From: Methanosarcinales archaeon
Lineage (GTDB): Archaea; Halobacteriota; Methanosarcinia; Methanosarcinales; Methanogasteraceae
Direction: 5' to 3'
DNA length: 39,252 bases
Assembly: GCA_030604085.1 (NCBI GenBank)
Contig: JAUVWP010000003.1
Span: 1-39,252, forward strand
A program made the translations under genes and the position numbers. The notes below the pieces were generated by a model. The model searched no databases, was not told where the DNA came from, and worked only from the letters and a program-made list of their open reading frames with translations. Shown here one piece after another: positions 2,229 through 32,105 of the stretch (positions are counted from its first letter, which is position 1; each line of letters starts with the position of its first letter).

Positions 2229-2944
2229 TGATGAACGCAGACGTATATGAGATATTCAACTCGGTTCAGGGCGAGGGAACCCGTGTCGGCGTGAGACAGG
2301 TCTTTGTCAGGTTCTGCGGCTGCCAGTTGCACTGCGAATACTGCGATACCGGAGCGGCAAGGGTTCCGGCAAAGAGGTGCAGGATTCTCGACAGGTATAT
2401 CGACAATCCGCTCGGTATGGATGCTGTGATCGACGCCATCGATGATCTGTGGACCCCCGCTACCCGAAGTGTCAGTCTAACAGGGGGAGAGCCGCTGTTG
2501 CACTGCGATTTCATAGGAGAACTTGTGAGGGGCGTTTCACGACCGATATATCTTGAGACTAACGCCGGTCTTCCGGATTCTGCCAGAACGATAGCAGATC
2601 ACATCGATATCGCTGCATGTGATATCAAACTCCCGGAACACAGGGCAACCCGGGATTATGACAGTCTTTTAGATGCTGAATTACAGTCGATCGAGATATT
2701 CCATACATCGGGTGCCGAAACTTTTGTCAAAATTATTGTTCTTCCGGAAACAACAGAAAAAAGCATCAGTGGCGCGGTTTTTGGAATCAAAGCCATCGAT
2801 GATTCGATTCCGCTGGTCATGCAGCCGGTAACTCCTTTGAGTGTTGATCTCTGCCAGTTGCTCGACCTGATGGACTTTGCAGGCGCGCACCTCTCCGATG
2901 TCCGCATGATTCCGCAACTGCACCGGATGATCGGAATTCCTTGA
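2228..2944 (+). CDS. queE: 7-carboxy-7-deazaguanine synthase (radical SAM)
   Basis: EIFNSVQGEG, FVRFCGCQLHCEYCDT (CxxxCxxC), SLTGGEPLL, YLETN, IPQLHR. Confidence 0.88.
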   Translation: MMNADVYEIFNSVQGEGTRVGVRQVFVRFCGCQLHCEYCDTGAARVPAKRCRILDRYIDNPLGMDAVIDAIDDLWTPATRSVSLTGGEPLLHCDFIGELVRGVSRPIYLETNAGLPDSARTIADHIDIAACDIKLPEHRATRDYDSLLDAELQSIEIFHTSGAETFVKIIVLPETTEKSISGAVFGIKAIDDSIPLVMQPVTPLSVDLCQLLDLMDFAGAHLSDVRMIPQLHRMIGIP

Positions 2945-3004
2945 TGCGCTATCTCCTTATTTGCCGTACAACCGGTTAACCGGCTGCGAGTGGCTGTGCG
3001 ATAG

Positions 3005-3017
3005 ATTTCTTTTTTTT
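3005..3017 (+). terminator. Oligo-T terminator candidate after cbiB-ala-queE
   Basis: T-rich run (tttcttttttttt) about 60 nt after the queE stop. Confidence 0.45.
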
Positions 3018-3074
3018 CACTGGCTGAATGGAAGTAATTCTCTTCCCTGTTTGCGTATTGTAGGTATTTCTCAA

Positions 3075-3114
3075 AAACCTAACTTTATTAGGGTTAATTA
3101 TTTGCAAACCTAAC
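3075..3114 (+). promoter_or_regulatory. 40-bp promoter/operator motif, copy 1
   Basis: AAACCTAACTTTATTAGGGTTAATTATTTGCAAACCTAAC; same architecture at 5558 and 5967; followed by AGGAGG and the ATG at 3149. Confidence 0.8.
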
Positions 3115-3148
3115 TGCCCACATAGATGCACCCAAAAGGAGGTTTAAT

Positions 3149-5065
3149 ATGGAAGACACAAGATTTAAGGCAATTAGAAGAACTCTGTCAACAATCGTGC
3201 TGATAACGATCCTGCTATCATCGATCGCACCTGCTGTTGCCGGAGCTTACGAGAATGGCGGGGCGGATGAAAAGATCGGAGTCCTCGTCGTAGCACATGG
3301 AAGCCCGAGCGAGAGCTGGTGTAGCCATGTGCGGAATGAAACAGATGAGGTGGATCTGCCGTATCAGGTCGAACTCGGGTTCCTCGAGTTTGTACCAAAT
3401 GAGACGATCAATCTCGCTGTCGAGAGACTCGATGACGCCGGTGTAACAGAGATTATCGCTGTACCGCTCTTTATCTCATCACACAGCAGCCATATCCTGG
3501 AGATCGAGTATGTGCTCGGGCTTCGGGAGACGCTTCCACTGACAACTGAGCACGTCGTTGTCGAGGGCGTGGAGATGGAGCGGTCTGTCGTTCCGAATGG
3601 CGGTCGATACGCAATATCCCGTATGCCGCTTGAGGATGACGCTAACGGGGATATGCGAGCGCTGGGGCGCCCGGAAGAGGGGATGGAAGAGGAACTTGTG
3701 CCGGTCGAGACCGATGCAGAGATCATCCTCACCGCTGCGATGGATGACCACTGGCTTGTGGCAGGGATCGTTGCGGATCGCACGGCTGATCTGGTCGCGA
3801 ATCCGGAAGGCGAGACGCTCGTTCTCGTTGCGCATGGGACCGAGGAGGAGGATAACTTCGCCGGATGGGTGAACAGCACCTCATCGCTTGCCAATCAGGC
3901 GCGGCTGAAGCTTCTGTACTGGAGAGATCCCTCGATCGGGATTAGCGGCACAGAAGCCGCGTTTATCCACCATAACGAGACGCTTCACCCTGAATTCACG
4001 TTAAGACCGATCGTTTCAGACGCCGCGGATCCGGTCGTCGTCCCGCTGATGGTAAGTGAGGGATACTTCACAGGCACGAAGATTCCGGGTTTGCTTGAGA
4101 ACCTGACTTACGTCTACGATGGCAGTGCGCTTACGCCGCACCCGAATGTGGCTGAATGGATCGAGATCGTCGCTTCAGAAGAGTTCACAGATCTTACGCT
4201 CCGGATATCTGATGAAGGAGAACTTCTGGATATCTCGCTGGATGATGTGGGTGCTGCACACGGTCACATCTGCCCGTGCGTTGCAGCAGCGTTCAAGGCA
4301 AGCCAGACAGCGTTTCTGGCGTGGGACGGAGTTCCTCCTGCACGCGGCGATCTGGAGATTGCCAGTGCACACCCGTCCGACGGGCATACTGAGACGTTTG
4401 AGTACATCTTAAACTCAAGCGATGACGTCACAGTCAAGCTGCCCGAGGGAACTGATATCGTGAATCTGACTGCGGAGAACTACAACTACAGGTTCGTCGA
4501 GAAATCGACCGGCGACATGGTTGTGGTCAGCGCGAAGGATGGTCTTTTCCCTGACGGCTTCTTTGAGATGAGAAAGAGGTGCAAGACAGGGGTTACAACG
4601 CCTGACGAGAAGTTGGCATTCAAACTTGCGAAGGGGGAGCTTAAGGAGAAGATTCTCTATCTGCCGACAGAGGAAATCTTTGAGGTCGAGTATACCCGAG
4701 GAGGGAGTTCAACAGTACTCACCACCGAGATCATCCCCGCGATCTCGATGACGGTTCCGACGACAACTGTCGATTTCGGGAAGGTCGGGGCAGGGATGAC
4801 TTCTGCAAATCAGGTCATAACAGTCGTGAACACGGGAGCGAAATCTGCAAAGGTCTCTGCAATGATGCTGGATGACGATAGCGGATTCTACAACGAGTCG
4901 CTCTGGTTAAACAGCCTGAATATCGGTGGTTTCTCAAGCGTGGTGCCATCAGACACGTCAGACTTCAGATATGAGTATGAGATTCTCGCAAACCTTGTGG
5001 TGCCTGACTGGGCAGGAGGAAAGTATGATGGGACGATCTTTTTCGTTGCAGAAAGCGAGTCGTAG
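3149..5065 (+). CDS. Secreted CbiX-like chelatase-fold protein (two CbiX domains) fused to an FmdE-like domain and a C-terminal beta-rich domain
   Basis: N-terminal signal-like stretch; GVLVVAHGS...GFLEF...VPLFISSHSSH; second domain TLVLVAHGT...VVVPLMVSEGYFT...LTPHP; HGHICPC resembles the FmdE HGHxCP motif; AGGAGG ribosome site. Confidence 0.75.
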   Translation: MEDTRFKAIRRTLSTIVLITILLSSIAPAVAGAYENGGADEKIGVLVVAHGSPSESWCSHVRNETDEVDLPYQVELGFLEFVPNETINLAVERLDDAGVTEIIAVPLFISSHSSHILEIEYVLGLRETLPLTTEHVVVEGVEMERSVVPNGGRYAISRMPLEDDANGDMRALGRPEEGMEEELVPVETDAEIILTAAMDDHWLVAGIVADRTADLVANPEGETLVLVAHGTEEEDNFAGWVNSTSSLANQARLKLLYWRDPSIGISGTEAAFIHHNETLHPEFTLRPIVSDAADPVVVPLMVSEGYFTGTKIPGLLENLTYVYDGSALTPHPNVAEWIEIVASEEFTDLTLRISDEGELLDISLDDVGAAHGHICPCVAAAFKASQTAFLAWDGVPPARGDLEIASAHPSDGHTETFEYILNSSDDVTVKLPEGTDIVNLTAENYNYRFVEKSTGDMVVVSAKDGLFPDGFFEMRKRCKTGVTTPDEKLAFKLAKGELKEKILYLPTEEIFEVEYTRGGSSTVLTTEIIPAISMTVPTTTVDFGKVGAGMTSANQVITVVNTGAKSAKVSAMMLDDDSGFYNESLWLNSLNIGGFSSVVPSDTSDFRYEYEILANLVVPDWAGGKYDGTIFFVAESES

Positions 5066-5534
5066 GGGGATAATCCCCCTTCTCCTTCTTTTCCTGCTGA
5101 TCCCGCAAGCATCCGGGATCGGTGTTGGCGCATCACCTGACAGGATCGAGTTTGGCGTGGTGAGCCCGAAAGATGGAGCGGTACGAGAGCTGTACGTGAT
5201 CAACACCGGTGACGCGGCAGAACGAGTTTTACTCACGGTAGAAGGAGTAAATCTTACCGTAGACCCACTGGAGTTCGATCTTGCTGCAAAGGAGAACAGG
5301 GCTGTTGTGGTATCGGTAGATCATGCAGAAGCTGGCGAGCATGAGGGAAGCATCCTGATCACGGCTCGTCCGTCCGGAGACGGCGCAGGCGGGCTTGGTC
5401 TTGGCGCAGGCGTCAGGGTGCCGGTCTCGTTTGTTGTGGAGGACAGTACCTCATGGAAGGTCGTTGTCGTCGCCGGACCGCTTCTTCTTGTTGTGGCTGC
5501 TACGGTGTTCTGGAGGCGGCGAACAAAGGTGTGA
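5025..5534 (+). CDS. Exported Ig-like protein with C-terminal membrane anchor
   Basis: GGAGG upstream of ATG 5025; signal peptide (IIPLLLLFLLIPQASG); IGVGASPDRIEFG..LYVINTG beta-sandwich pattern; C-terminal TM followed by RRR. Confidence 0.7.
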   Translation: MMGRSFSLQKASRRGIIPLLLLFLLIPQASGIGVGASPDRIEFGVVSPKDGAVRELYVINTGDAAERVLLTVEGVNLTVDPLEFDLAAKENRAVVVSVDHAEAGEHEGSILITARPSGDGAGGLGLGAGVRVPVSFVVEDSTSWKVVVVAGPLLLVVAATVFWRRRTKV

Positions 5535-5557
5535 ATGATGTTTCGGGTTTTTGCGCT

Positions 5558-5597
5558 AAACCTAACTTTTTTAGGGCAACTTATTTCCATACCTAAC
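5558..5597 (+). promoter_or_regulatory. 40-bp promoter/operator motif, copy 2
   Basis: AAACCTAACTTTTTTAGGGCAACTTATTTCCATACCTAAC; followed by AGGAGGT and the ATG at 5636. Confidence 0.8.
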
Positions 5598-5635
5598 ACC
5601 ACAGTCTTCTAAAACATGAAAGGAGGTGGAGTACA

Positions 5636-5722
5636 ATGGGTTGTGAATGCGACGGAAACTGCGTACATTGCAGATGCAAGAAAGCCAAAGCGGCAAGCGA
5701 AGAAGTTGAAGACGAAGAGTGA
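5636..5722 (+). CDS. 28-aa Cys-rich peptide (metallothionein-like candidate), below the ORF-track cutoff
   Basis: MGCECDGNCVHCRCKKAKAASEEVEDEE*; AGGAGGT at 5621-5627; lies directly after motif copy 2. Confidence 0.7.
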   Translation: MGCECDGNCVHCRCKKAKAASEEVEDEE

Positions 5723-5966
5723 AAACCTGTGAGAAGATGCCTTGGAGCACCCTATGGAACGGATGAAAACCCCTCTCCGTTCCCGCACATATTGCAGGCA
5801 CATAACGAGTTTTATTGGCAAATACGTGGAGTTTGATCATCACATGAATGAGATGATTGAACAATACATCTCTTCGAAAGGTCTCTGCAGGACGATACAA
5901 TCGGCAGTGGTGATGTGGTGGGAGATTCTTGCTCAATGAATCTCAATAAGTTTGGATTTTCATTCA

Positions 5967-6006
5967 AAACCTAATATTTGTAGGGACAACTATTTGTATA
6001 CCTAAC
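5967..6006 (+). promoter_or_regulatory. 40-bp promoter/operator motif, copy 3
   Basis: AAACCTAATATTTGTAGGGACAACTATTTGTATACCTAAC. Confidence 0.78.
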
Positions 6007-6233
6007 ATCCAACTTACCGGATGCAGGCATACGCTTGCGGTAGACTCGAAAAACCCGCGTCTATGTAGCGAAATATATCGCCTCCTGGATAGTTTGATGC
6101 GGGAGTGTGGTACGGGGATCGTGGACCGGGAGTGGGGTAATCTCTCATACACATCCTCCGGCGATATGCTGCAAATCAGGACAAATGGCATCAGCATCTC
6201 AAAAACGATGCGAAAGTCGAATCGGTGAACTTC

Positions 6234-6373
6234 ATGGAAAACGTACAACAACTGACCAGATGCCCGAAGTGTGGAAAACGTCGTACGTATGCGGACATAC
6301 ACAGATCTGCAGCACATGCGGCTACTGGATCCTGAAAGGGACTGCGAGAATGGATTCGATCGTTGTCATCTGA
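6234..6373 (+). pseudogene. Small zinc-ribbon protein with a 1-nt frameshift
   Basis: GGTGA at 6224, then ATG: MENVQQLTRCPKCG. One extra A in the AAAA at 6275-6278 would join it to KTSYVCGHTQICSTCGYWILKGTARMDSIVVI*, giving CxxC...CxxCGY. Confidence 0.5.
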
Positions 6374-6631
6374 ACATCATTTTCCCACTCAGGAGAATCT
6401 GCGCATGTTCATGTCCAGGATCTTAAGAATCCTGATTTGTTCGGATTTTTGAATTTATTCGAGTTTTTGCATCACCGGTGTCGTATATATGGCGCAGTGG
6501 CCATATCCTGATCTCTTCGCAGACCTCGATCCTTCCAGTATACCTCAGGAGTATCTTGAGCGGTTTCAGGGCATGGAGGTGCCGGATAGAATCTTTGTGT
6601 ACCCGGCAAGTGAGCCATAAAGATCAGTAGA

Positions 6632-6994
6632 TCAGTGGTGTCGGTGCTCCCGGCAAGCGTTCTCGTCGGTCGCTTCCATAAGCTGTCCCTGCTGCCATGC
6701 CTCGATTGCATCGCGCACCGTACCTGATGCACCCACAAGGACGTCGATTCCGAACTGCTCGAACATCGTAACAGCCTTAGGTCCAAGCCCCCCACAGAGC
6801 ATGACATGAGTTCCGGTCTTTGATATGAACTCCGGGGGCAGCCCGACGCCACCCATATGCTCGCTGGTATTCTGGGTTACCTCAACCTCATTCGTGTCGA
6901 GATCGACGATCGTGTATGTCGGAACCCTGCCAAAGTGCTGACCGACAGGAGCGTCGATACCGCCCTCTCCTTCTGTTGGAATACATACTTTCAT
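6632..6994 (-). CDS. NifB/NifX-family (MTH1175-like) metal-cluster-binding protein
   Basis: MKVCIPT...VGQHFGRVPTYTIVD...LCGGLGPKA...GIDV; His-rich C-terminus. Start placed at ATG 6994. Confidence 0.88.
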   Translation of the reverse strand: MKVCIPTEGEGGIDAPVGQHFGRVPTYTIVDLDTNEVEVTQNTSEHMGGVGLPPEFISKTGTHVMLCGGLGPKAVTMFEQFGIDVLVGASGTVRDAIEAWQQGQLMEATDENACREHRHH

Positions 6995-8431: not shown

Positions 8432-8659
8432 ATGGCAAAGAAAATACTACCATTGGCTCCAGTTGAGCGACTTATACGGGCTGCATCCGAAGGCGACATC
8501 AGGGTCAGCGAATCAGCATGCAGCGCTTTGACCGACGAGCTCGAGAAGATCGGAATGAAAATCGCTAAGGAAGCGATTATCGAGACGAAACACGCGGGCA
8601 GAAAGACGGTTAAGGCAGAAGACATCAACAGAGCACTTGATATACTCAAACTGGGCTGA
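8432..8659 (+). CDS. Archaeal histone (HMf family)
   Basis: LPLAPVERLIR...RVS...AKEA...HAGRKTVKAEDI; AGGAGGT ribosome site; AAAAAGTATATATA promoter-like stretch near 8255. Confidence 0.96.
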   Translation: MAKKILPLAPVERLIRAASEGDIRVSESACSALTDELEKIGMKIAKEAIIETKHAGRKTVKAEDINRALDILKLG

Positions 8660-30749: not shown

Positions 30750-32105
30750 TCATGTTTTCTTACATGCCATATCACATTTTCCATTTCCATCGAATTTGCA
30801 CTCTATTTTTTCCCTTTTATCGATTCGATATATTTTTATTTTTTCAGATTCCGGTGATTCAGGATCTATGATGATAAATGAATTGGTACACTTTCTCTCA
30901 TGGGGTTCTTTCACCCATCCGCCGCAGTTGTAAATGTTTAGATTAGTTTTCGAATCTCTTATCTTTCCCGCAACATGGGTATGTGCAAATATATAATGAT
31001 TAATCTTCTTTTTATCGTTTCCCAACTCCTCTATGAGGTTTAGGTAAGTGTAGTTTTTTCTTTCCATACTGATATCTTTTTCTGTTATTTCATGCATAAC
31101 TTTCTTGATGGTGTTCCCTCTTTTATTGCTAACAGTGTTTGTCACAACATTCGAAAGCAATATTCCACTTATTTTAGGAAGAGAATAAACTAACGCTGTG
31201 ATAGGTACGCCTATTTTAAGTATCCGTATAGGTTCAAGACTATGTAGCCACTCAGGTATTCCGGAACTATAAAGAGTTATTAAACTCGGTAAACTCGGCA
31301 ATATAAAACCTATAATAGCAGAAAAAATAAGCCAGCGCGCTTTTTTAATTCTCCAAATAAAGTCCCTTCCCGCTCGTACTACGTCATCGAATTTTGTGTA
31401 GTATATCAGTGAATAGAGAGATGAAAAATTTGATTCGAGGTCGTTTCTGATTTCTTCGGAATCGGCATCTTTTTTAATTTTTATTGGTCTTCTGTGGAAT
31501 ATACTTGAAAATATGGGAATAGTCGGGACATATTTGTAGACTTTTGCAAGAAAAACTTTCATAAACCTTTCTGCTCTCTCAGGATAATGCCCGTGATCAA
31601 AGTATATAGTTCCCAGTCCGTCGATTTCCCGTTTATAGTGTGGATAGTAGAACTTCACATTTTTCAGTTCATGGGTGAGATTTAGATTGCCTATTTCATT
31701 TATTAGCCCTTTAAATATTTTTTCCGGCTTTTTGCCGTTTATTATATCTCTATATCTTTCTAAACTATCCATTCCGAAGCTTATTTCTTTTAAAAAATGG
31801 TCATGGTTTCCTATAACATATATTAATTCTACATCACGATCTTTATTATTTTCCACATATTTCGAAAGCCTTTCAAAGAATTGTATATCACTTGCATTAT
31901 CCCATGCATCCGCAAATCCTACCCGCCATAAATCAAAAATATCTCCAAGTAAAATTATTTCCTTGGGCTTAATCTCAGTTTCTATCAAATCCAAAAGATT
32001 TATAAGATCTACAACATTTGTTTCCTCATCTTCAGTTGGGTCATGTATTACGCCGAAATGTGTATCCGAAAATACAACAATTTTGTTCAAATTATCTAAA
32101 CCCAT
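30750..32105 (-). CDS. Calcineurin-like metallophosphoesterase with two internal TM helices (AT-rich, probably acquired)
   Basis: SDTHFG, LLGDIFD, GNHD, HGH, FAHTH, YNCGGW; GGAGG before ATG 32105. Confidence 0.85.
   Translation of the reverse strand: MGLDNLNKIVVFSDTHFGVIHDPTEDEETNVVDLINLLDLIETEIKPKEIILLGDIFDLWRVGFADAWDNASDIQFFERLSKYVENNKDRDVELIYVIGNHDHFLKEISFGMDSLERYRDIINGKKPEKIFKGLINEIGNLNLTHELKNVKFYYPHYKREIDGLGTIYFDHGHYPERAERFMKVFLAKVYKYVPTIPIFSSIFHRRPIKIKKDADSEEIRNDLESNFSSLYSLIYYTKFDDVVRAGRDFIWRIKKARWLIFSAIIGFILPSLPSLITLYSSGIPEWLHSLEPIRILKIGVPITALVYSLPKISGILLSNVVTNTVSNKRGNTIKKVMHEITEKDISMERKNYTYLNLIEELGNDKKKINHYIFAHTHVAGKIRDSKTNLNIYNCGGWVKEPHERKCTNSFIIIDPESPESEKIKIYRIDKREKIECKFDGNGKCDMACKKT

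Follow-up and report, generated by a model that had tools for sequence, protein, structure and literature searches.

Metal-dependent repressors of the DtxR/IdeR type recognize a 19-bp box in which the rigid DtxR dimer uses the order TTAGG-N4-CCTAA. Leyn and Rodionov (J Bacteriol 2015) reportedly predicted by comparative genomics archaeal regulons of the DtxR family, named 'FetR', that control feoAB through a palindromic motif and include those of methanogen orders; genomes of the anaerobic methane-oxidising archaea (ANME) of groups ANME-2c and ANME-3 and of GoM-Arc1 are said not to have been covered. The general principle of a DtxR-family feoAB regulon in archaea is already known from haloarchaea, Thermococcus and Archaeoglobus. 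The DtxR-family protein TroR of Haloferax volcanii binds TTTAGGC-N3-CCTAAA (PMC10783522) and the consensus of Archaeoglobus fulgidus MDR1 is GTT-N8,9-AAC (PMC3074139). The element described here lies in a stretch of 39,252 nucleotides from a Methanosarcinales archaeon, called the window, which is contig C162 of a 2.0-Mb assembly in 181 contigs (genome G000, rated 94.6% complete). A 40-bp motif occurs there three times. The three copies are probably, with reasonable rather than high confidence, the cores of composite promoter-operators of ~65 bp that belong to an iron-starvation regulon of an ANME-2c-type archaeon and are read by a DtxR-family protein.

The pattern AAACCTAA-N6-TAGGG-N5-TATTT-N4-ACCTAAC matches the + strand of the window at positions 3075-3114, 5558-5597 and 5967-6006 with neither gap nor mismatch, as reported in an initial annotation of this DNA. 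No fourth match appears in the window when up to 3 mismatches are allowed, and dinucleotide-preserving shuffles of the window (n=100) give none. The inverted CCTA/TAGG pair and the repetition of CCTAA at a spacing of 31 bp (3078 and 3109), also claimed in that annotation, are both present. Its extent of 40 bp describes a real unit but had to be widened, since in the copies aligned with their flanks the conserved block reaches ~25 bp further upstream, through a first pentamer, a T-run and an A-run. The full element of ~65 bp has four TTAGG/CCTAA pentamers arranged around an A-tract and T-rich stretches. Their order is a (TTAGG), b (CCTAA), c (TTAGG followed by G) and d (CCTAA between A and C), with centres ~19, 10 and 21 bp apart. 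The central pair b-c forms the palindrome CCTAA-N5-TTAGG; N14 separates a from b and N16 separates c from d.

All three window copies conform to CCTAA at b, TTAGG(G) at c and (A)CCTAA at d. Element 1 (3059-3114, + strand) has TAGG at 3061-3064 in position a, followed by a T-rich tract and the A-run, and then b CCTAA at 3078-3082, c TTAGGG at 3088-3093, TATTT at 3099-3103 and d ACCTAAC at 3108-3114; it is predicted to be the promoter-operator of the operon headed by the CbiX-FmdE gene. Element 2 (5542-5597, + strand) is composed of a TTCGG at 5542-5546, b CCTAA at 5561-5565, c TTAGGG at 5571-5576 and d ACCTAAC at 5591-5597, and its 40-mer is the best conserved of the three, being identical in several genera. 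Element 3 (5951-6006, + strand) carries a TTTGG at 5951-5955, b CCTAA at 5970-5974, c GTAGGG at 5980-5985 and d ACCTAAC at 6000-6006. Co-oriented ORFs start behind the three copies at ATG 3149 (+35 nt), ATG 5636 (+39 nt) and ATG 6234 (+228 nt). The initial annotation had placed each copy before a His/Cys-rich product; this stands for the CbiX-FmdE protein, the Cys-rich peptide and the zinc ribbon, except that the zinc-ribbon ORF is frameshifted in the window. The remnant of a fourth element (6440-6469, + strand) keeps only the upstream third, with TTCGG, a T-run and a degenerate b. A full element occupies this site in four relatives and is followed by a paralogous leader (…GGTAGACTCAAAAAA…), while the 3' half is deleted alike in the window and in one other relative. 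A TAGG-N4-CCTA palindrome at 31202-31215, inside a minus-strand ORF of 462 amino acids (aa), is taken as chance.

Across the window's own genome the 40-mer pattern, with up to 3 mismatches allowed, is matched 11 times and its reversed control never. A weight matrix built from those sites retrieves one more copy, the 12th, which is oriented divergently to one of them. All 12 copies stand upstream of an ORF start and in the same orientation, 11 of them at 17-84 nt and the third window copy at 228 nt; an association with mobile-element ends, which the initial annotation had named as a sign against its proposal, was not seen. Its expectation of further matches before feoAB or a DtxR gene was borne out by a perfect copy before feoA-feoA-feoB (FeoB_N, E 4e-49), an operon that ends with a DtxR-family gene. 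The co-regulated metal module that it envisaged gains weight from copies before genes for a flavodoxin (Flavodoxin_1, E 1e-29), two triple-FeoA proteins with three FeoA domains each and two predicted extracellular CobN-type proteins of 1552 and ~1429 aa (CobN-Mg_chel, 1021.6 and 1062.1 bits), the metal and the repression being matters of interpretation. The other sites precede a DUF454 gene (Pfam), two copies of a DUF3793 gene, one intact and one truncated on contig C172, and the three window units (CbiX-FmdE, Cys peptide and zinc ribbon). Small dockerin and Ig-type proteins accompany the CobN-type genes.

The candidate regulator is encoded outside the window, at C100:19026-19485 (L009:1501-1960), at the end of the feoA-feoA-feoB operon. 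Behind feoB this operon codes for a 159-aa membrane protein, a small winged-helix (FeoC-like) protein with a Cys-rich insert, CSCSTSNLCEQCQC, at the position expected of FeoC, and the DtxR-family protein. The latter, the most likely reader of the element, is a 152-aa member of the DtxR/MntR family whose orthologues are intact at this length in relatives. It has both the winged-helix amino-terminal domain and the metal-binding dimerization domain (Pfam) and is devoid of the SH3-like third domain. Fe_dep_repress and Fe_dep_repr_C score 55.9 and 53 bits in the copy of the window genome, and 67.6 and 57.4 bits, both above cut-off, in an intact orthologue (L060:992-1447). This is the only complete DtxR-family gene and the only Fe_dep_repr_C match in the window genome, where no Fur was found and one NikR gene is present. 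In a set of 41 genomes of the order, an orthologue of the regulator (48-100% identity) accompanies the motif in 29 of the 30 motif-bearing genomes, the exception being a metagenome-assembled genome (MAG) that is 84% complete. None of the 11 motif-free genomes has a close orthologue, their only relatives of the protein being longer paralogues of 28-40% identity.

The 41 genomes around the window yielded the 40-mer in 24/24 members of the same family (f1), 3/3 of the family including the GoM-Arc1 genome (f6), 1/4 of family f2 and 0/9 of families f3, f4 and f5 taken together, with no match of the controls. The motif-bearing genomes number 30 because genome G040, recognized by the core pattern, adds to the 29 found by the 40-mer. 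The same search in the 201 genomes of the order with a completeness of at least 80% gave 14/14 for f1, 2/2 for f6, 8/15 for f2 (two genera, 6/6 and 2/2), 2/122 for f4, 0/46 for f3 and 0/1 for f5; the motif-bearing genomes are 27 of 201 with the window genome (f1) included, and the reversed control is absent from all 201. The element is therefore largely confined to seep alkane-oxidising lineages and rare in methanogenic relatives among those searched. Genes 68-90% identical to that of the CbiX-FmdE protein occur in Candidatus Methanogaster and ANME-2 MAGs, which are the closest, in GoM-Arc1, in Methanosarcinales and Methanosarcinaceae MAGs and in Candidatus Methanovorans (ANME-3); the window genome appears to be that of an ANME-2c-like archaeon.

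Core-pattern matches from all loci numbered 142, of which 141 had enough flank, 122 passed the weight-matrix score (a filter that is not independent, as 93 of these sites had gone into the matrix) and 115 were unique. Their consensus is TTnGGnTTTTnnnnnAAAACCTAACTTTnTTAGGGnAnnnTATTTnCATACCTAAC. Of these 115 sites, 82 have a and b 18-20 nt apart; the distance is 11 nt in four others and 25 nt in three, and an a-type pentamer was not found in 26. In the profile of the 93 core sites, information content is highest at pentamers b, c and d.

The same orthologous genes are found behind the element in four families, and a site precedes feoB in each of the four lineages examined (G000, G034, G040 and G029). 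The regulon of the relatives includes in addition secreted beta-helix/NosD-type, NHL and dockerin proteins, methyltransferases, an ICMT-like membrane protein and DUF2325 proteins. Sites and regulator gene share one locus in G000, G034 and G040. In G040, a 99% complete genome from a mostly motif-free family, the single full four-pentamer site heads the feo operon, ~3 kb upstream of the regulator orthologue. In G034 three sites and the regulator gene are on one 16.5-kb contig, C177 (L078). The G034 regulator is 79% identical to the orthologue used as query, from a congener of the window genome (G004), against only 58% identity between the NikR proteins of G034 and the window genome; together with the presence of the regulon on one contig this hints at horizontal transfer of the locus as a package.

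The classical arrangement of the pentamers is also found in these genomes, confined to accessory boxes outside the window. A TTAGG-N4-CCTAA box stands directly upstream of the regulator gene, as ATAGGGCACCCTAAT in the genus and as TTAGGTTATCCTAA in the GoM-Arc1 genome. Such boxes occur within 70 nt downstream of d in 17 of the 115 unique sites, mostly at feoA and DUF3793 promoters, compared to 2.8 in mononucleotide shuffles and 0 in a coding control. In divergent promoters and longer upstream regions it is the complete CCTAA-N5-TTAGG palindrome that recurs, ~30 bp apart and on one helix face. A hidden classical partner 9 bp from each pentamer was considered and rejected, those positions showing no TTAGG-like conservation.

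The element may be fused to a basal promoter. Upstream of the tRNA genes of the window genome (n=35, inspected by eye) a cRAAA motif is followed after 2-3 nt by a T/A-rich octamer, as in CGAAAGGTTAATATG and CCAAAGGTTTATATC, and the regulator gene has the same promoter form, CGAAAATG-TTAAAGGT, 23 nt before its ATG. In the element the A-run and TAAYTTTD fit this form, and between c and d there is a further T-rich stretch, TATTT. By a slight preference, the A-run before b would be the B recognition element (BRE) and TAAYTTTD, over b and the b-c spacer, the TATA box; transcription would then start near d, at about position 37-39 of the 40-mer. In the somewhat less favoured alternative TATTT would be the TATA box and the start would fall ~12 nt after d, which agrees with the constant 17-nt spacing to the leader-poor start of DUF454 but leaves the box devoid of an A-rich BRE. 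Four public RNA-library runs were used as contigs, which cannot show start sites. In runs X1, X3 and X5 their summed depth is lower in bin 5875-5991 than in bin 5992-6108. A contig of X5 starts at 6000, within d, next to the strain-variable positions 5996-5999, which could break assemblies, and other contigs span each motif (for example X1 5526-5734 and X3 5949-6261).

The motif, its position ahead of genes, the gene content, the conservation and the co-occurrence with the regulator gene are observed; binding, repression, the metal, the stoichiometry and the start site belong to the interpretation. In the iron-starvation model at least two dimers of the 152-aa protein in its metal-bound form, most likely with Fe2+, would occupy the pentamers, mask the TATA box together with the start site and silence ~12 operons. 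Protein on b-c would compete with the TATA-binding protein and transcription factor B, while protein on d would block the start. Archaeal MDR1 acts by blocking polymerase recruitment. When iron drops, the protein would leave the DNA and the operons would be expressed, giving Feo uptake of ferrous iron, a flavodoxin to replace ferredoxin, and secreted chelatase-like and small Cys-rich proteins that include the products of the three window units.

Several observations weigh against this model. The classical order TTAGG-N4-CCTAA, with ~9 bp between centres and two overlapping pairs in the 19-bp box, does not occur within the 40-mer, and because of the CCTAA-N5-TTAGG layout a DtxR-family protein would need a different binding mode there, or a second protein would have to take part. 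The regulator gene of the window genome is frameshifted in an A9 run, which is more likely a homopolymer error; if true, the frameshift would leave the regulon permanently on in the window strain. The co-occurrence counts of motif and regulator cannot be treated as independent, given the common ancestry of the relatives and the movement of loci in whole blocks. The best curated family of the regulator is MntR (NCBIfam NF003025, 119.9 bits, below the cut-off of 138) and its nearest solved structure is Bacillus subtilis MntR (PDB 1on1 and others, E 9e-24, residues 4-120); CbiX and CobN, in turn, are cobalt/nickel chelatase families. There is some chance, though a low one, that the element and the regulon are as described and the arrays are read by another factor or by the FeoC-like winged-helix protein, the DtxR-family protein acting only on the classical boxes. 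The co-existence of two pentamer layouts speaks either for two modes of binding or for the involvement of another protein, as a rigid dimer is not expected on both, and the FeoC-like gene adjoins the DtxR gene and is present in 22 of 24 f1 genomes besides that of the window, in G034 and in G040. However, the FeoC-like protein is found in none of the three motif-bearing f6 genomes, one of which is a single complete contig, the DUF2325 protein is absent from G040 in spite of its full site, and no other candidate tracks the motif. The pentamers shared by both layouts are more simply explained by one reader. It is similarly improbable that the same protein and operator respond to manganese, or to nickel or cobalt for F430 and cobamides, as the proximity to MntR and the presence of the CbiX-type protein and two CobN-type proteins in the regulon could suggest. 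The feoA-feoA-feoB operon, the two triple-FeoA proteins and the flavodoxin are nevertheless hallmarks of an iron response, covering both iron uptake and iron sparing, and none of the 12 sites of the window genome precedes a manganese, zinc or nickel transporter gene, be it of the NRAMP, ZIP, TroA or Nik/Cbi type. The regulator alignment keeps MntR positions D8, E11, H77, E102 and H103 and has a Cys at E99 (MntR ligand numbering), as do the iron-sensing DtxR/IdeR proteins. With this gene content, iron is quite likely the metal sensed.

Another explanation is a shared promoter module that is strong or depends on an activator and involves no metal repression; the palindromes would be activator sites or part of a conserved set of BRE, TATA box and initiator spread by duplication. 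The fit of the A-run and T-rich spacer to the local basal promoter form is compatible with this, as is the presence of paralogues in the set (FeoA fusions, CobN, DUF3793), whose duplication could have carried the promoter along. It is made very unlikely by the conservation profile, in which the G/C-containing pentamers and not the A/T-rich parts are best kept, by the unrelated gene families behind the motif, by the tRNA promoters of the window genome, which have no pentamers, and by the coherence of the set for iron. Nickel control through a NikR operator is less probable still. The half-sites of the Escherichia coli NikR operator are 16 bp apart, like c-d (TTAGG-N16-CCTAA), and this pair together with a-b mimics the two-turn spacing of a NikR tetramer; the window genome has one NikR gene, and chemistry of the CbiX/CfbA type is related to nickel. 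Yet NikR, rejected as reader, has orthologues in 41/41 genomes with a smooth identity gradient, including all 11 without the motif, no site lies near its gene, and feo and flavodoxin are not nickel genes. Hardly any credence is given to ends or relics of small mobile elements of the miniature inverted-repeat type in intergenic DNA. An imperfect palindrome in many copies per genome has that appearance, but the fixed orientation and distance of all 12 copies to the downstream gene start, their association with the same orthologous genes in four families, the lack of flanking duplications or a transposase among the features seen and the empty reversed control argue against it.

Turning to the products of the regulon, the first operon of the window begins with the gene of the 638-aa CbiX-FmdE protein (3149-5065, + strand). 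The protein has a signal-like amino terminus and is predicted to be secreted; two CbiX-type halves, with AHGS at 49-52 and AHGT at 228-231, are combined with an FmdE-like HGHICPC region and an Ig-like carboxyl-terminal region. CbiX is matched in Pfam with E 2.6e-11. The fusion to FmdE claimed in the initial annotation is upheld by 8 of 9 homologues, which match this family (best E 2.7e-6), while in the window copy the FmdE part stays below the Pfam cut-off (E 0.0071). CfbA-type matches in NCBIfam are weak and below cut-off. The predicted structure, from a 9-row alignment, has a mean pLDDT (predicted local distance difference test) of 44.4 and is usable at most for residues ~40-195. The second gene of the operon (5028-5534, + strand, start codon uncertain) codes a ~168-aa protein with a signal-like amino terminus, an Ig-like domain and a carboxyl-terminal membrane anchor; its homologues come after the CbiX-FmdE gene in G034 and G029.

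The gene under element 2 (5636-5722, + strand) encodes MGCECDGNCVHCRCKKAKAASEEVEDEE, a 28-aa peptide that begins with MGCECDGNCVHCRCKK and ends in an acidic tail, with AAAGGAGGT before the gene. A 27-28-aa ORF with the arrangement C-x-C-x3-C-x-H-C-x-C (five Cys, one His) is kept in 14 distinct DNA versions among relatives, which shows it to be a real gene. Its consensus, under its own copy of the element, is M[GD]CECxGxCxHC[RK]C followed by the acidic tail. The peptide has no family in Pfam and could be a metallothionein-like metal binder. Behind it is a 65-aa ORF (5742-5939) whose carboxyl-terminal half (MIEQYISSKGLCR..QSAVVMWWEI) recurs in relatives and whose amino-terminal part shifts frame.

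Element 3 is followed by a conserved leader of ~230 nt (6007-6233, + strand), which features the hairpin GCAGGC-AUAC-GCUUGC at ~6024-6039, a CCUCC box and G-tracts at ~6101-6140. The hairpin GCAGGC/GCUUGC is changed to GCAGGU/ACCUGC in another genus, a compensatory change, and all 14 sequences compared have at least 4 G-tracts within ~45 nt. Hairpin, CCUCC box and G-tracts mark the leader as a possible RNA G-quadruplex or regulatory leader of another kind; an Rfam scan of positions 2900-6700 at E up to 1 gave no match, the leader included. The zinc-ribbon ORF itself (6234-6373, + strand) codes in relatives for an intact 46-aa protein, MENVQQLTRCPKCGKRLYxCGHxQICSTCGYWTLKGTARMDSIVxI. The window is one base short after 6282 when compared to 8 relatives, so that the ORF is frameshifted, and contigs of public runs X1, X5 and X2 have an extra T at this point. 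The frameshift is either strain-specific or an assembly error.

Elsewhere in the genome, the two giant proteins of the CobN/Mg-chelatase family are encoded at C39:2101-12962 (L143). A CCC(M/I)VCCGNP motif and a carboxyl-terminal membrane anchor are found in both, and one carries a signal-like sequence at its amino terminus; on these grounds they are apparently extracellular, which is odd for an ATP-dependent chelatase family. At C172:11113-11200 an orphan element stands before the truncated DUF3793 start (~20 codons), whose orthologue in G005 is intact with 190 aa. An archaeal histone gene (75 aa) is present in the window at 8432-8659.

The anaerobic methane-oxidising archaea are uncultured and very iron-hungry, with multihaem cytochromes and iron-sulfur enzymes. 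To our knowledge, almost nothing is known of gene regulation in these organisms. In the open-access literature nothing was found that joins ANME and DtxR, nor anything specific on such a regulon in ANME or methanogens, also under the name FetR; ANME with CobN and chelatase leads only to unrelated work, and PMC8351635 makes no mention of DtxR. With a sharp operator, ~12 co-regulated operons can be listed for each genome straight from metagenomes. It directs attention to the unstudied secreted CbiX-FmdE and CobN-type proteins and to two tiny Cys-rich products in the iron response, and in seep metatranscriptomes the regulon can serve as a set of markers for iron stress. A bolder and rather doubtful proposal is that the regulator, arrays of CCTAA-N5-TTAGG palindromes spaced by three helical turns across the basal promoter, and the secreted CbiX-FmdE and CobN proteins form one package, shared in part horizontally among seep-dwelling alkane oxidisers that are not related to each other (ANME-2c, a second Methanosarcinales family, GoM-Arc1 and ANME-3) and almost absent from methanogenic relatives. 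It would then represent a system dedicated to iron scavenging, with extracellular chelatases that strip metal from tetrapyrroles or minerals or otherwise handle it, and a new DNA-binding mode for a DtxR-family protein.

The system resembles the DtxR/IdeR operators of Actinobacteria and TroR in its TTAGG/CCTAA pentamers, in a regulator encoded with its regulon, in iron-uptake targets, in several sites per promoter and in the classical TTAGG-N4-CCTAA boxes of some promoters. It differs from them by the everted central pair of the 40-mer (CCTAA-N5-TTAGG), by outer pentamers two helical turns off (N14 and N16), by an element of ~65 bp that would include the basal promoter and by a regulator without the SH3-like domain that is nearer to MntR. 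MDR1 and the DtxR homologue of Thermococcus kodakarensis (PMC3074139) are likewise archaeal metal-dependent repressors of the DtxR family; MDR1 regulates its own operon, comparable to the position of the regulator here in the feo operon behind the element, whose TTAGG-type pentamers are unlike GTT-N8,9-AAC. Both by structure and by family the regulator is matched best by B. subtilis MntR, but the score is below the family cut-off, a Cys replaces E99 and the regulon has no manganese transporter. Compared to the FetR regulons, the secreted CbiX-FmdE and CobN-type proteins, the 28-aa Cys peptide and the zinc-ribbon gene with its G-rich structured leader are added; these members appear to be new, as do the lineages and the 65-bp layout with its putative fusion to a basal promoter. 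The geometry of this operator is unlike that of the textbook DtxR box and can be checked with one purified protein.

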